Source: Podarcis pityusensis (taxonomy: Eukaryota). Taken from it: a DNA stretch of 64,000 nt. The translations under genes and the position numbers were made by a program. The notes beneath the pieces are model-generated. The model was not told the origin of the DNA and searched no databases. It was given only the letters and a program-made list of their open reading frames with translations. Of this stretch, positions 2,706 through 45,273 are shown piece by piece. How positions within the stretch are numbered: position 1 is the stretch's first letter; each line of letters opens with the position of its first letter. Location: the NCBI GenBank assembly GCA_964106645.2, contig OZ067044.1; one strand, 5' to 3'.

Positions 2706-5281
2706 ATCCAAGGCAGACCTTTTAACATCACAGTAATCCAAGTTTATGCACCAACCACTGGTGCTGAAGAAACTGAAATTGACCAATTCTATGAAGACTT
2801 ACAACACCTTATATAAATGACACCAAAGAAGGATGTTCTTCTCATTATAGGGGATTGGAATCCTAAAGTAGGGAGTCAAGAGATAAAAGGAACAACTGGC
2901 AAGTTTGGCCTTGGAATTCAAAACAAAGCAGGGCAAAGGCTAATAGAGTTCTGCCAAGAGAACAAGCTGGTCATCACAAACACTCTTTTCCAACAACACA
3001 AGAGACGACTCTACACATGGACATCACCAGATGGGCAGCATCGAAATCAGATTGATTATATTCTCTGCAGCCAAAGATGGAGAAGCTCTATACAGTCAGC
3101 AAAAGCAAGACCTGGAGCTGACTGTGGCTCAGATCATCAGCTTCTTATAGCAAAATTCAAGCTTAAACTGAAGAAAGAAGGAAAAACCACTGGGCCGGTA
3201 AGATACAATCTAAGTCAAATCCCTTATGAATACACAGTGGAAGTGAGGAACAGGTTTAAGGATTTAGATTTGGTGGACAGAGTGCCTGAAGAACTATGGA
3301 TGGAGGCTCGTAACATCATACAGGAGGCAGCAACTAAAACCATCCCAGTGAAAAGGAAATGCAAGAAAGCAAAGTGGCTGTCCAACGAGGCCTTACAAAT
3401 AGCGGGGGAGAGAAGGCAAGCAAAATGCGAGGGAGATAGTGAAAGATACAGGAAATTGAATGCAGAATTCCAAAAAATAGCAAGAAGAGACAAGAAGGCC
3501 TTCTTAAACGAGCAATGCAAAGAAATAGAGGAAAACAATAGAATGGGAAAAACCAGAGATCTGTTCAAGAAAATTGGAGATATGAAAGGAACATTTCGTT
3601 CAAAGATTACCATAATAAAAGACAAAAGTGGAAAGGACCTAACAGAAGCAGAAGACATCAAGAAGAGGTGGCAAGAATACACAGAGGAGTTATACCAGAA
3701 AGAAATGGATGTCTCGTACACCCCAGGTAGTGTGGTTGCTGACCTTGAGCCAGACATCCTGGAGAGTGAAGTCAAATGGGCCTTAGAAAGTACTGCTAAT
3801 AACAAGGCCAGTGGAAGTGATGATATTCCAGCTGAACTATTTAAAATTTTAAACGATGATGCTGTCAAGGTGCTACACTCAATATGCCAGCAAATTTGGA
3901 AAACACAGCAGTGGCGAGAGGATTGGAGAAGATCAGTCTACATGCCAATCCCTAAGAAGGGCAGTGGCAAAGAATGCTCCAACTACCGCACAGTTGCACT
4001 CATTTCACACGCTAGCAAGGTTATGCTTAAAATTCTACAAGGCAGGCTTAAGCAGTATGTGGACCGAGAACTCCCAGAAGTGCAAGCTGGATTTCGAAGG
4101 GGCAGAGGAACCAGAGACCAAATTGCAAACATGCGCTGGATTATGGAGAAAGCTAGAGAGTTCCAGAAAGACATCTACTTCTGCTTCATTGACTATGCAA
4201 AAGCCTTTGACTGTGTCGACCACAGCAAACTATGGCAAGTTCTTAAAGAAATGGGAGTGCCTGATCACCTCATCTGTCTCCTGAGAAATCTCTATGTGGG
4301 ACAAGAAGCTAGAGTTAGAACTGGATATGGAACAACTGATTGGTTCAAAATTGGGAAAGGAGTACGGCAAGGCTGTATATTGTCTCCCTGGTTATTTAAC
4401 TTATATGCAGAATTCATCATGCAAAAGGCTGTACTGGATGAATCCCAAGCCGGACTTAAGGTCGCCGGAAGAAATATCAACAACCTCAGATATGCAGATG
4501 ACACAACCTTGATGGCAGAAAGTGAGGAGGAATTAAAGAACCTTTTAATGAGGGTGAAAGAGGAGAGCACAAAATATGGTCTGAAGCTCAACATCAAAAA
4601 AACGAAGATCATGGCCACTGGTCCCATCACCTCCTGGCAAATAGAAGGGGAAGAAATGGAAGCAGTGAGAGATTTTATTTTTTTGGGCTCCATGATAACT
4701 GTAGATGGAGACAGCAGTCACGAAATTAAAAGACGCCTGCTCCTCGGCAGAAAGGCGATGGTAAACCTAGACAGCATCTTAAAAAGCAGAGACATCACCT
4801 TGCCAACAAAGGTCCGTATAGTTAAAGCCATGGTTTTCCCGGTAGTAATGTATGGAAGTGAGAGCTGGACCATCAAGAAGGCTGATCGCCGAAGAATTGA
4901 TGCTTTTGAATTATGGTGCTGGAGGAGACTCTTGAGAGTCCCATGGACTGCAAGAAGATCAAACGTATCCATTCTTAAGGAAATCAGCCCTGAGTGCTCA
5001 CTGGAAGGACAGGTCGTGAAGTTGAGGCTCCAATACTTTGGCCACCTCATGAGAAGAGAAGACTCCCTGGAAAAGACCCTGATGTTGGGAAAGATGGAGG
5101 GCACAAGGAGAAGGGGACGACAGAGGACGAGATTGGACAGGTTGGACAGTGTTCTCGAAGTTACAAACATGAGCCTGACCAAACTGCGGGAGGCAGTAGA
5201 AGACAGGAGTGCCTGGTGTGCTCTGGTCCATGGGGTCACGAAGAGTCGGACACGACTAAACGATTAAACAACAACAACAAC
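2706..5281 (+). mobile_element. Bov-B LINE (RTE clade), 5'-truncated, with (CAA)n tail
   Basis: AP-endonuclease motifs (IQVYAPT, GDWN, NQIDYI, SDH), RT with YADD, the typical Bov-B C-terminus (VHGVTKSRTRL) and an AAC-repeat tail. Confidence 0.97.
2817..5267 (+). CDS. Bov-B ORF remnant: partial APE endonuclease plus complete reverse transcriptase (816 aa, uninterrupted)
   Basis: ORF track. Endonuclease homology continues upstream in frame past a TAA at 2814-2816, so this ATG is internal and the N-terminal endonuclease part is missing. Confidence 0.85.
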   Translation: MTPKKDVLLIIGDWNPKVGSQEIKGTTGKFGLGIQNKAGQRLIEFCQENKLVITNTLFQQHKRRLYTWTSPDGQHRNQIDYILCSQRWRSSIQSAKARPGADCGSDHQLLIAKFKLKLKKEGKTTGPVRYNLSQIPYEYTVEVRNRFKDLDLVDRVPEELWMEARNIIQEAATKTIPVKRKCKKAKWLSNEALQIAGERRQAKCEGDSERYRKLNAEFQKIARRDKKAFLNEQCKEIEENNRMGKTRDLFKKIGDMKGTFRSKITIIKDKSGKDLTEAEDIKKRWQEYTEELYQKEMDVSYTPGSVVADLEPDILESEVKWALESTANNKASGSDDIPAELFKILNDDAVKVLHSICQQIWKTQQWREDWRRSVYMPIPKKGSGKECSNYRTVALISHASKVMLKILQGRLKQYVDRELPEVQAGFRRGRGTRDQIANMRWIMEKAREFQKDIYFCFIDYAKAFDCVDHSKLWQVLKEMGVPDHLICLLRNLYVGQEARVRTGYGTTDWFKIGKGVRQGCILSPWLFNLYAEFIMQKAVLDESQAGLKVAGRNINNLRYADDTTLMAESEEELKNLLMRVKEESTKYGLKLNIKKTKIMATGPITSWQIEGEEMEAVRDFIFLGSMITVDGDSSHEIKRRLLLGRKAMVNLDSILKSRDITLPTKVRIVKAMVFPVVMYGSESWTIKKADRRRIDAFELWCWRRLLRVPWTARRSNVSILKEISPECSLEGQVVKLRLQYFGHLMRREDSLEKTLMLGKMEGTRRRGRQRTRLDRLDSVLEVTNMSLTKLREAVEDRSAWCALVHGVTKSRTRLND

Positions 5282-11585: not shown

Positions 11586-11711
11586 AGTTATAATCAGGTT
11601 TAATACTTTTACCAGCTTCAAGGCTGTTTATTGTGATTTGAAATACGATGTGCAGAAGCAGAAATGTTAGACTCATGAAGCACAAGGATTTTAGTAACCG
11701 GCCTGTATGCC
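11586..11711 (-). CDS. PIEZO2: PIEZO2 coding exon 3 (126 nt, phase 1-1)
   Basis: Translation (G)HTGRLLKSLCFMSLTFLLLHIVFQITINSLEAGKSIKPDYN(C) continues exon 2 in frame; the split Gly codon is G|GG. Acceptor tgtgtcttttag, donor gtgagt. Confidence 0.97.
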
Positions 11712-23725: not shown

Positions 23726-24461
23726 AATATTTTACTCTTGATTTTGTTGTATACCAGTTCAAGAGGCATTTGAGCTGGAAAGTGGTTTAAAAGATTTATA
23801 TAAATAGACATTCTAAAATTCCTCCCTATTGTTACAATCCCAAACCTTGGTTAGAAAAGATTTTTGATTACTTTGTTATAGTCCTTTAACTAACCCAGCA
23901 CCATAGAATAATATTTGAATGATATTATTATTTGATTAAATTTCAAGCGTATGGGCAAGCCTTCTTTCACTTTTATTTTTAAGACAATGCCTAGTATTTT
24001 TAAAAACAATATTTTCAAATTAGTACATATTTTTACAAAGTGGCAGAGTTCCTGATCAGTCAAGGGATAAATTAACCGACAGCCATGTTTTAGAAAGGTT
24101 AGTGGGCTCCTCCCCACTGCCTGCAATTACTTTCACTACCTGCTTTTTCTCCAGAAAAATATTTGTTTAGCATTTCTATACTGATTCTCTGCCATCAAAA
24201 GAGCACTCAAGTGATGCACAGCACAGCACATAACACAATAAAGGCCACATCAACAAACATTAATATCATTTCTAAAAATCAATAAAATAAATGCACTTAA
24301 AACCAGCCCTAAAAAAGTTGAAGATAAAATTAAATTTAAAAATAAAAACCTTCAATCAACTTTAAAGTTGTTCCTCAAGAGCCACATTTTGATAAGCTGC
24401 TGAAACAATAAATAAAAAAATTGTCCAGTAGCACCTTAGAGACCAGCTAAGTTTGTTATTG

Positions 24462-24499
24462 GTATGAGCTTTCATGTGCATGCACACTTCTTCAGATAC
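24462..24499 (-). ncRNA. Minimal type-I hammerhead ribozyme motif (Penelope-type), core intact
   Basis: Minus strand reads GUAU-CUGAAGA-A-GUGUG-CAUG-CACAU-GAAA-GC-UC-AUAC: stem I GUAU/AUAC, CUGANGA, stem II, GAAA and a palindromic AGCU stem III. Confidence 0.75.
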
Positions 24500-24758
24500 A
24501 CTGAAACAGAAGTCACCAGACCCCTATATATAGTGGGAGGCTGGGGTGGGGTTTTTCTCAGAAGGGTAGTGGGAGATGGGTGATTGACTCAATGGGTATG
24601 GTAAACCTGTTGACGACTGTTAATGACCGCAATTAGTCCTACAGGAAAAGCAAGGGATAGTATGCAGATGACCAAAAATAATCTCCCACTACCCTTCTGA
24701 GAAAAACCCCACCCCACCCTCCCACTATATATAAGGGTCTGGTGACTTCTGTTTCAGT

Positions 24759-24795
24759 GTATCTGAAGAAGTGTGTATGCACACAAAGCTTATAC
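24759..24795 (+). ncRNA. Second hammerhead motif, core damaged (G of GAAA lost)
   Basis: GUAU-CUGAAGA-A-GUGUGUAUGCACAC-AAA-GCUU-AUAC. Confidence 0.6.
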
Positions 24796-24981
24796 CCAGA
24801 ACAAACTTAGTTGGTCTCTAAGGTGCTACTGGACTATCAAACTATCTATCTATCTATCTATCTATCTAGACTGCGTCAGACCAACACGGCTACCTACCGG
24901 AATGCTGAAACAACAAGAAATATATGACGAAATGCACTTCTTATGGAGTTTACCTATGTATGACCAATACCACAGAAGAAG

Positions 24982-42298: not shown

Positions 42299-43735
42299 TA
42301 GTAAGAATGCTCATTTTCCACCCAAAATGTGGCACTACAGAAGACATTGAAAATACCAAGTCAGATGCACAAAAGTTCAGATCTAGCAGTATTCACTAGA
42401 CAATCTGGTACAATGGGCTGAAACTGGATTTTGAATCCCTTCCCCTTGAAGGGATATTAGGAACCAGAAAGCTTGGGTGGCGCATATTCCTTCTATGATA
42501 AAAACTAAAATTGCTGCTGCCTGCGACTTCCTGTTAAGAGTGGACGCCAAGTTACCACGGTAACTAATGAGTGATATCTGGCCCACAGCTTTCTAGAGAA
42601 ATGAAAGCTGTCCCTCAACACTGATGAGCATTGCCCAGATGGATTATCTGAAAGTAAAGTTAGCCAGTATAAAACATTAAAAGAAAATAGTACTGTATTA
42701 AAATTCTGAGCTAGAAGATTAAGGATGGCTGTCAAACATTAGTAGTGTTTTGCTTACAGAGAACTGCAGTGTTTAGGATGTCAATCATCCTTCCAGGTCC
42801 AGAAAGGTCCAGAAAAGAAATCACATAAAATGAAGACCATAAAAAGATTTTGAATCAGAAAACTGCACCCATATTCCCCTTAAGGTGCTCAATCTAGCCA
42901 CTCATCTGTCATATTTACCATTTTAAGAGACACTTTAGCCAACATCTAGACATTTACTGTTGGATTTTTGCTTTGTTTTTTGCTCCGTTCTTCTAATTTT
43001 TCTGTAATAAAAAGTGTCTGACAGATTTAGCAACACTGTGAATTTCTAACACATAGAAACTTTCATTTTTCACTTCTGTATTTTACTTGCAAAAGCTCAC
43101 CAGGAACTAAGTCCACACATTTATTATAGGAACTTTTCAAAGCACACAAAGAATAATACACTGTTTCCCCCTTCACATCGGTCTTCTTAAATATATTGTC
43201 AAAAAAGGAGAAGTATAGGTTTCCCCCATGAGTGAAATATCATGGATGGACTGCATGATCCTATTCTATATCTCTCAAGGCTGAATTCTCTTGCTGCTGC
43301 TTCCGAGTTTGGCAGTGTGGGGAGTGCTCTAGGACAGGGCCTGTCCCACAAAGGTTATTAAAAGAAATTGAGCAAATCTTCACTACTATAGTAGACTGTG
43401 TGCAAACACATACAGTGTGCAATGCCTGTCAGCTTCCAATACTTTCTCAAAGAGTGCATGTGAGTTAAACAAAGACCTTAATAAGTTTTGTTTATTTGTT
43501 TAATCCAGTGTTATGCTGAAAGACAATTACAGTGGTACCTCGGGTTACATACGCTTCAGGTTACAGACTCCGCTAACCCAGAAATAGTGCTTCAGGTTAA
43601 GAACTTTGCTTCAGGATGAGAACAAAAATTGTGCTCTGGCGGCACAGCAGCAGCAGGAGGCCCCATTAGCTAAGGTGGTGCTTCAGGTTAAGAACAGTTT
43701 CAGGTTAAGAACGGACCTCCGGAACAAATTAAGTA

Positions 43736-44485
43736 CCGTATTTTTCGCTCTATAGGACGCACTTTTTCCCCTCCAAAAATGAAGGGGAAATGTGTGTGCG
43801 TCCTATGGGGCGAATGCAGGCTTTCACTGAAGCCTGGAGAGCGAGAGGCATCGGTGCGCACCGACACCTCTCGCTCTCCAGGCTCCAGGAAGCTATCTGC
43901 AAGCCTTGCGTACCCGGGGGGAGTTCCCCCGGGCACGCAAGGCTTGCGGGCGGCAGCCTGCAGCGCGGAGCACGGGGAGCCCTCCGGAGGACGCCCCATG
44001 CTTCGCGCAGGTGTCCGCAAGCCTTGCGTGCCCGGGGGGAGATCCCCCCGGGCGCGCATGGCTTGCGGGCGGCAGCCTGCAGCGCGGAGCACGGGGCGCC
44101 CTCCGGAGGACGCCCCGTGCTTCGCGCAGGTGTCGGCAAGCCTTGCCACCCGGGGGATCTGCCCCGGGAGCGCAAGGCTTGCGGGCGGCAGTCTGCAGCG
44201 CGGAGCACGGGGCGCCCTCCGGAGGACGCCCCGTGCTTCGCGCAGGTGTCTGCAGCCTGCCGTCCGGCTCATGGGGCGCCCTGAAGCAGAGCGCCCCTCA
44301 GGCCGGGCAGACATCGGCCAGCCCCACAAGCTCGGGGGACAAGGGGGAGGCGCAGCGCCGCCATCCCACTGTTCCCCGACCTGGTTTTGGGGGGGAAATA
44401 ACGGGAAAAAAATTTTCCTTTATTTCCCCCCAAAAAAGTAGGTGCGTCCTATGGGACGGAGCGTCCTATGGAACGAAAAATACGG
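43736..44485. mobile_element. Tc2-like non-autonomous DNA transposon with GC-rich tandem hairpin array
   Basis: 25-bp TIRs CCGTATTTTTCGCTCTATAGGACGC / GCGTCCTATGGAACGAAAAATACGG (23/25); TA duplication at 43734-43735 and 44486-44487. Confidence 0.9.
43899..44251. repeat. Three tandem ~118-bp units, each made of two GC-rich hairpins
   Basis: Unit starts (gcaagccttgc) at 43899, 44017 and 44136. Confidence 0.92.
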
Positions 44486-45177
44486 TACTTAACCCGAGGT
44501 ACCACTGTATTATTTTCTACCTTAGACATGAACATGCAGAGTTAAGCCAATGGGGGGTTTAAAAAGTACAAGAACTAAAGTAATTAAGTTTTAGAAACAG
44601 CATTTGTACCTTGATTCTTAGTGAAAGGCAGCGCACACAACATAAAGTGTGGAAAAGGAAACGGGGGTATAATTCAATGTCATGTATTTCAGCTTGCCAG
44701 ATGGAACAGTCCCCCGCTCCCTGCACAGTTCTGAGGGTTCTCTCAGCCTCCCACCTACAACCCAATTTCAGAGGTGTGGAAGGAGGAGAAGGGAAAACTT
44801 CATTGCACAAACAGAAGTCATTTACTCAGGGCTTCTGCTGATGAGTCTTGTCCAGTGAATCCTGCCCTTTAGTTCAAAAATACATGAATATTTTGCTTAT
44901 TCAACAGAATTTAAAGGCAAAAAGTGCCATTTAAATAAGTCTTGTTCATTCATTTCAATGGATATACTATGAGTAAAACTTAATTGAATACCATCCAAAG
45001 AAACTGGATTAATCAAACTGTAATTACTTACTGAAGTGTTTGGTTTGTCCATAGTTTCATTTCTCTCTCAGATATATAGTCCACTATTTTTTTTAAAAAA
45101 GGGTTTCTGTAGCAACTTAATTTTTCACATCAGTTGCATCTATCTGCACCTTTTTTAAAAGCCAGAAACAGGCTTAC

Positions 45178-45273
45178 CTTGCATTGTTGTTTTCGTAGGT
45201 TCCGAAAAAAGAGGAATGAGTAGCAGGTAGATGAGGTAGACAAATGAGAGTCCATTGTAGCGGAATGCACATG
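45178..45273 (-). CDS. PIEZO2: PIEZO2 coding exon 2 (96 nt, phase 1-1), N-terminal transmembrane region of the mechanosensitive channel
   Basis: Minus-strand translation ACAFRYNGLSFVYLIYLLLIPLFSEPTKTTMQ(G) matches the vertebrate PIEZO2 N-terminus as recalled. Acceptor tttctctctttctctctacag and donor gtaagc are canonical. Confidence 0.97.

Follow-up and report, generated by a model that had tools for sequence, protein, structure and literature searches.

Does a hammerhead motif in an intron of PIEZO2 cut the nascent transcript of the gene that carries it? The question arises from a 64,000-nt stretch of the Podarcis pityusensis genome (assembly GCA_964106645.2, contig OZ067044.1; here called the window), in which an initial annotation had recognized a potential self-cleaving motif on the PIEZO2 pre-mRNA strand. 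The motif lies in an intron of PIEZO2, which is encoded on the minus strand, between two coding exons (Table 1) that matched PIEZO2 (E = 3e-17 for 45273-45178 and 3e-14 for 11711-11586) far better than PIEZO1 (1e-5 and 1e-3, respectively); additional PIEZO2 exons reach down to G000:C7:49968083. The assignment to PIEZO2 is thus borne out by the exon matches, and the intron number that came with it, 2, is a count by homology with the upstream coding exon unlocated. Three Piezo paralogues were observed in the genome (G000:C6:13.30-13.36 Mb, C7:49.97-50.14 Mb, and C8:49.86-49.92 Mb), each with N-terminal and cap-domain exons. Elsewhere in the window, an open frame of 816 aa (2817-5267, plus strand) matches RT and an APE-type endonuclease; it lies antisense to PIEZO2 in the gene's next intron, and we take it to be an RTE/BovB-like LINE. 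A GC-rich, tandem-repetitive stretch in which both strands contain long open frames (43690-44560) lies ~600 nt downstream of the exon at 45178.

On the PIEZO2-sense (minus) strand, positions 24499-24462 read GUAU CUGAAGA A GUGUG CAUG CACAU GAAA GC UC/AUAC, letter for letter as annotated. Core numbering by script placed C3 at 24495, G5 at 24493, an extra A at 24488, G10.1 at 24487, U11.1 at 24474, G12 at 24473, C17 at 24466, and A1.1 at 24465, with the predicted cut between 24466 and 24465. The conserved core (C3 U4 G5 A6 N7 G8 A9 / G12 A13 A14 / A15.1-U16.1 / H17) is complete. Stem I has 4 bp, within the short range (4 to 5 bp) of minimal Penelope-like element (PLE) hammerheads, and stem II has 5 bp, including a G10.1·U11.1 pair, and carries loop II, CAUG. 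Both the extra nucleotide at A9/10.1 and a palindromic 15.2-16.2 segment, the AGCU that replaces stem III, are present. The window copy departs from the minimal PLE type at 10.1-11.1, where that type and the family majority have G-C. Exact matches to three core patterns numbered 9,810 genome-wide, or about one per 154 kb (control pattern, 0), and divided at positions 11.1/12 into 8,349 CG, 621 TG (the state of the window copy), and 840 CA. Given the G-C pair in the majority, the window copy is a decayed member of its family, and these counts also support the earlier reading of U11.1 as CpG decay.

A chance sequence without any ribozyme homologue could produce some of what was observed. The loose core pattern occurred in the window at chance level (4 seen, 4.66 expected). 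The initial annotation had proposed a Hammerhead_1 covariance search; Rfam returned no hammerhead family for the window at the gathering score or for 24300-24950 at E ≤ 10. Within the genome, pair 10.4-11.4 gave only two double changes, one of them compensatory, too few for covariation to be informative. Nevertheless, a descriptor combining the core with stems I and II matched once in the window, compared to a shuffle mean of 0.01 (3 of 300 shuffles matched). Furthermore, the family majority has each of the four features published for minimal PLE hammerheads, and the motif sits at the pLTR position of a Penelope-like element. A chance origin is therefore scarcely credible: the window motif is a real hammerhead motif of a known kind. 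Its annotated class, a minimal type-I hammerhead of Penelope type, gains support from the same ribozyme in the pLTRs of full-length relatives.

The motif is part of a 494-nt host insertion (24409-24902), the size given at the outset, in which a pLTR stump stands head to head between 11-bp target duplications (Table 1). Its inverted pLTR begins right after the stop position of the parent ORF, ends in a T-rich tract, and is 82% identical over 250 nt to the pLTRs of full-length elements and up to ~95% identical to stumps of its own subfamily. The stump consists of pLTR sequence only, without an ORF, and has the features of an EN+ PLE insertion (inverted 5'-truncated pLTR, one-end tail, and target-site duplication); it would have originated by target-primed retrotransposition with 5' inversion. 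The second hammerhead, in the direct arm, has lost 1 nt from its G12-A14 segment. The two arms are 94% complementary over 158 nt, and the whole insertion folds as one hairpin (−312 kcal/mol; z = −27). In pre-mRNA, this 158-bp, 94% paired hairpin (24420-24837) is likely a substrate for A-to-I editing. Head-to-head stumps are common, with 24 pairs among the fetched loci, and 22 of the 24 have one shared haplotype. Behind the ribozyme, the window arms (24420-24577 and 24681-24837) each have a common subfamily haplotype, but not the same one, with three differences at polymorphic sites; such mixed arms may reflect one insertion copied from two templates, a source that was itself a hybrid, or gene conversion at a later time.

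Table 1. Features of the PIEZO2 intron and of the 494-nt insertion (window coordinates)
Feature	Position	Strand	Basis
PIEZO2 coding exon upstream of host intron, 96 nt	45178..45273	(-)	PIEZO2 chains, Pfam Piezo_TM1-24
PIEZO2 coding exon downstream of host intron, 126 nt	11586..11711	(-)	PIEZO2 chains, Pfam Piezo_TM1-24
Target-site duplication, left copy, 11 bp	24398..24408	(+)	sequence
Inverted 5'-truncated pLTR	24409..24680	(-), = PIEZO2 strand	similarity to family pLTRs
Minimal type-I hammerhead of inverted pLTR	24462..24499	(-)	sequence; genome-wide family counts
Initiator-like TCAGT	24504-24500	(-)	sequence
TATA-like box	24532-24525	(-)	sequence
Direct pLTR arm, 94% complementary to 24420-24577	24681..24837	(+)	alignment
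Second hammerhead, antisense to PIEZO2, core broken	24759..24795	(+)	alignment
(TATC)n microsatellite, then Penelope tail (~24863-24902)	24838..24902	(+)	sequence
Target-site duplication, right copy, 11 bp	24903..24913	(+)	sequence

In DNA runs under four organism labels, contigs from the unique left flank reached 11 to 28 nt into the element (4/4 runs), and contigs of the right flank started inside the tail (3/4 runs). Among the joints listed for these four runs, none was an empty-site joint bypassing the insertion; contigs break in the repeat. The insertion appears to be common to the four organism labels and hence to have persisted.

The window arm belongs to an older subfamily, copies of which continue, on the upstream side, into the last part of the ORF found in full-length relatives. 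In three such relatives (L094-L096), a single 951-aa stop-to-stop frame with RT (RVT_1, E = 4e-12) and a GIY-YIG domain at its C terminus lies between pLTRs carrying the same hammerhead, the arrangement expected of an EN+ PLE. The GIY-YIG score was 21.8 bits, just below the cut-off of 22.6; two truncated copies scored 22.9 and 23.1 bits. At three loci (L027, L032, and L050), the hammerhead was found ~190 nt behind an RT and GIY-YIG frame. Protein matches to the ORF were 98 to 100% identical in all 99 that were scored (the best 99 of 3,786 candidates), indicating that the full-length subfamily is young. The parent family has its probable place in the Neptune/Nematis clades, to judge from a CX4CxxC linker before GIY-YIG (one match in the L094 frame, at residue 811).

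Several family loci show other arrangements. One full-length locus (L095, G000:C9:17784500-17793500) is a tandem of the form pLTR-ORF-pLTR-ORF-pLTR with two intact 951-aa frames and a period of 3,010 nt, a natural substrate for tests of dimer cleavage. Another (L062:1860-2175; G000:C1:6051860-6052175) holds three tandem 74-nt units behind an inverted piece, each beginning at stem I and containing an intact hammerhead; dimers could form within this miniature retrozyme-like array. At a third (L027:1495-1981), a young-subfamily pLTR directly precedes one of the older subfamily in same-strand orientation, with hammerheads 248 nt apart. A retrovirus-like pol fragment (RNase H-like region, labeled by eye) flanks a family copy at L017:1892-3160.

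What the motif can do in PIEZO2 RNA depends on its folding, for which the values given here are nearest-neighbor equilibrium estimates that take no account of proteins or of tertiary energy in the core. A PIEZO2 transcript contains, from 5' to 3', the tail, the complementary arm, the loop, and the ribozyme arm. Because the complementary arm is made first, the ribozyme never exists without its complement in the nascent chain, and the 158-bp hairpin, closing outward from the inversion point, would forestall stems I and II. For an open core with both stems I and II formed, the predicted probability was 0.10 for the bare 38-mer, 0.002 within 81 nt, and 1e-4 for the arm alone; with the complementary arm present, it fell to 4e-30 in a nascent chain whose 3' end lay 10 nt beyond the motif and to 6e-35 in the full insertion. 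The corresponding predicted penalty on folding of the ribozyme stems was 42 to 49 kcal/mol. The competition from a long hairpin that the initial annotation foresaw is thus supported, and the realistic chance of cleavage in nascent PIEZO2 RNA that it allowed for is not. Helicases, hnRNPs, and A-to-I editing, which equilibrium folding ignores, could open the hairpin. If freed, the motif, having no stem III of its own, would require a partner, as had been anticipated, and the nearest one on the same strand would be transcribed 138 kb later. Given a mirror arm that precedes the ribozyme in transcription and should, by prediction, pair with it as it emerges, and given that the window copy is one of ~9,800 in its family, we consider it very probable that this is the Penelope pLTR hammerhead of a 494-nt stump that does not cut PIEZO2 pre-mRNA and is an ordinary, inactive passenger. 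The role of the ribozyme would lie in the life cycle of the parent element, with its tandem pLTRs 3,010 nt apart, and not in the host gene; there it would likely be aided by the element protein, as reported for an anole element (PMC11167929).

Pairing with a second copy was also modeled. In the model, the G10.1·U pair makes stem II 1.3 kcal/mol weaker. The two-copy double-hammerhead fold had a predicted energy of −6.7 kcal/mol, compared to −11.1 kcal/mol for the young CG form. The best two-copy dimer was instead a 14-bp duplex in which the palindromic stem II segments pair with each other (−27.6 kcal/mol), and the palindromic loop II is accordingly predicted to trap an off-pathway duplex rather than to assist dimerization, as had been proposed. 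In the young full-length subfamily, loop II is CUUG and non-palindromic, so the palindrome is no conserved aid, and we rejected this suggestion.

Within 284 kb around PIEZO2 there are two further family stubs, one per strand. That on the PIEZO2 strand (L233, G000:C7:49982881, minus) is a lone stub in a late intron, between the exons at 50022174 and 49973293, with an intact core, G10.1-C11.1, a 3-bp stem I, and no mirror arm; it is a more exposed candidate for cleavage than the window copy. With this stub in the gene, one could envisage PIEZO2 output being tuned through cleavage of the nascent RNA, the window ribozyme acting as a dimer with another family copy carried by that transcript. We regard this as highly unlikely. 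The stub, the nearest same-strand partner, lies 137.6 kb downstream and has a stem I of only 3 bp, and the window copy is predicted to be sequestered. Moreover, at one motif per 154 kb, two are expected in a gene of at least 173 kb. Cutting inside an intron is, in addition, often compatible with intact splicing. The special tie to PIEZO2 implied at the outset is likewise unsupported, given this genome-wide density and an intact core as the usual state of family copies. Most likely, the window copy is without consequence for PIEZO2. We found no paper on a PIEZO2 hammerhead or a lizard intronic Penelope hammerhead at this locus, in a search of mainly open-access literature.

The motif could instead be exposed in an RNA that begins downstream of the mirror arm. 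In the inverted pLTR, a TATA-like box lies 30 nt upstream of an initiator-like TCAGT, and together these motifs likely place a candidate start site at the 5' edge of the ribozyme. A sigma-70 promoter scan returned nothing; it uses a bacterial model and is not applicable to a vertebrate promoter. Where family copies begin was quantified in 100 copies anchored downstream of the ribozyme (the first 100 of 9,099 matches, on one contig, with mirror pairs and a few duplicates counted twice). In 14 of the 100, homology stopped precisely with the 5' G of stem I, and 36 ended 42 to 51 nt from the anchor; the pile-up at the stem I edge was significant relative to a uniform distribution (P about 1e-9). 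Only 1 to 2 copies ended at the cut site (13 to 14 nt), equal to the uniform expectation, and in 91 homology extended beyond it. Copies that start at the 5' edge of the ribozyme and not at the cut site imply that most copied RNAs were uncut and likely started at this edge. Uncut templates are still compatible with cleavage, since cut RNAs may be destroyed or re-ligated. An extra G preceding the start, as from cap copying, was seen by eye in 6 of the 14 copies, too few to use. No paper on copy starts at the ribozyme edge was found by title or abstract in a search of mainly open-access literature.

These observations bear on the idea that the window copy, silent in PIEZO2 pre-mRNA, cuts in a short cryptic RNA initiated from its own TATA and initiator (~24502-24499). 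Such an RNA would lack the complementary arm and find its partner in the element protein or in another family RNA, and cleavage would trim ~34 nt off a cryptic intronic RNA and leave PIEZO2 untouched. The spacing of the two promoter-like motifs and the preference of family copies to begin at the ribozyme edge agree with this idea, the many intact young-subfamily ORFs are a possible source of protein, and protein-assisted cleavage is described for the anole element (PMC11167929). We nonetheless judge it improbable: the promoter is no more than a candidate, CpG decay points to a methylated copy, the G10.1·U pair costs stem II 1.3 kcal/mol, and the ribozyme fold has a predicted probability of 0.002 even in 81 nt. 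An inactive passenger remains the preferred reading of the window copy.

Whether the family as a whole retains signs of cleavage was assessed from how its copies decay. Thirty copies picked by their flanks only (the first 30 of 431 matches) were compared, leaving aside six polymorphic or CpG columns. The core was intact in 20 of them, the extra A after A9 was present in all 30, and G12 was lost in 5. Family copies decay without sparing the ribozyme core (6/300 changed positions in the non-CpG core versus 25/810 in stems and elsewhere; P = 0.41). At the CpG of the ribozyme, the killing change to CA (G12A; 840) exceeded the sparing change to TG (C11.1U; 621). A control CpG in the tail went in the opposite direction (CA 559, TG 676; odds ratio of 1.64), a comparison that has one control CpG only and copies that are not independent. 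A hand count of 100 flank-selected rows listed gave 58 CG, 18 TG, 23 CA, and 1 GG at positions 11.1/12, and the CA:TG ratio of 23:18 was not significant. The G12A excess can be explained by the sequence context, by editing of the cDNA, or by slippage in the A run; it may also hint that family ribozymes are active somewhere.

In the strongest form of that hint, family hammerheads would be active in vivo at thousands of loci and leave a footprint in the genome, with mirror arms neutralizing the stumps that lie in genes. Cutting would destroy element RNAs or harm host transcripts, such that only uncut RNAs are copied, and ribozyme-dead variants would be over-represented, as in the 1.64-fold excess of G12A over C11.1U relative to the control CpG. 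We consider this reading rather unlikely. If it were true, head-to-head stumps would persist in genes because the mirror arm neutralizes the ribozyme. The value of the locus lies at the level of the family, which is Penelope-like, young, and very abundant and has intact ORFs and pLTR ribozymes in tandem. In such a family, the in vivo role of PLE hammerheads can be approached by counting: copy starts relative to the cut site, mutations in the core, and intron depletion of sense, intact copies.

Domesticated intronic hammerheads (HH9/HH10 type) are single-copy, have a stable stem III, and occupy an orthologous site conserved across distant species. The window motif, multi-copy and without stem III, is not of this kind. 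Nor is the stump a non-LTR retrozyme. Like the retrozymes described in a preprint (bioRxiv 10.64898/2026.07.22.740005), it is non-autonomous, PLE-derived, and equipped with a type-I hammerhead, but those elements are same-strand tandems with a ribozyme in each unit. At least two consecutive complete same-strand units are needed, whereas the stump is head to head with one intact ribozyme and a broken second one. The same preprint reports mild intron depletion in Xenopus.

The insertion resembles those of Neptune-clade EN+ PLEs. As described in PMC8557442 and PMC3846280, these elements combine RT, a Zn-finger-like linker motif, and GIY-YIG, and their insertions show an inverted pLTR, a one-end tail, a target-site duplication of ~10 bp, a TATA box with initiator, and head-to-head stumps; a CX2-5CxxC linker before GIY-YIG defines the Neptune/Nematis clades (PMC8557442). 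The window stump differs in lacking an ORF and in having arms with different subfamily haplotypes. The anole element PAc (Poseidon, Anolis carolinensis), as described in PMC11167929, is likewise a reptile PLE with a pLTR hammerhead, a tail, and AT-rich targets. Its ribozyme cleaves only with its protein and is dispensable for insertion in vitro, that text reports no RNA-seq reads ending at the cut site, and uncut RNA is its main template, which fits the copy starts of the window family. Two features set the ORF of the window family apart from PAc. One is the CX4CxxC linker, a mark of Neptune/Nematis; the other is a first Met located downstream of the ribozyme, where PAc has its start codon within stem II.

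The motif itself matches the minimal PLE hammerheads (min-HHR) defined by Cervera and de la Pena (2014; PMC4209133). That paper reports them at thousands per genome, reptiles included, and names fish, Xenopus, turtle, and snakes; monomers did not cleave and dimers cleaved at a low level, and a dimer model of small PLE hammerheads is summarized in PMC6765202. In the accessible literature on hammerheads, we found no activity measurement for a G10.1·U11.1 form. The min-HHR and the window family share type I topology, a 4-bp stem I, the extra base at A9/10.1, a palindromic 15.2-16.2 segment without loop 3, location in the pLTR, and a genomic pattern of thousands of dispersed singles with opposite-strand pairs 100 to 700 bp apart. 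The window copy differs in having G10.1·U in place of the conserved G10.1-C11.1 and a stem II of 5 bp, compared to 7 to 8 bp in Schistosoma. The family consensus may already be contained in the supplements of PMC4209133. The window motif is one decayed copy of a published kind of ribozyme.
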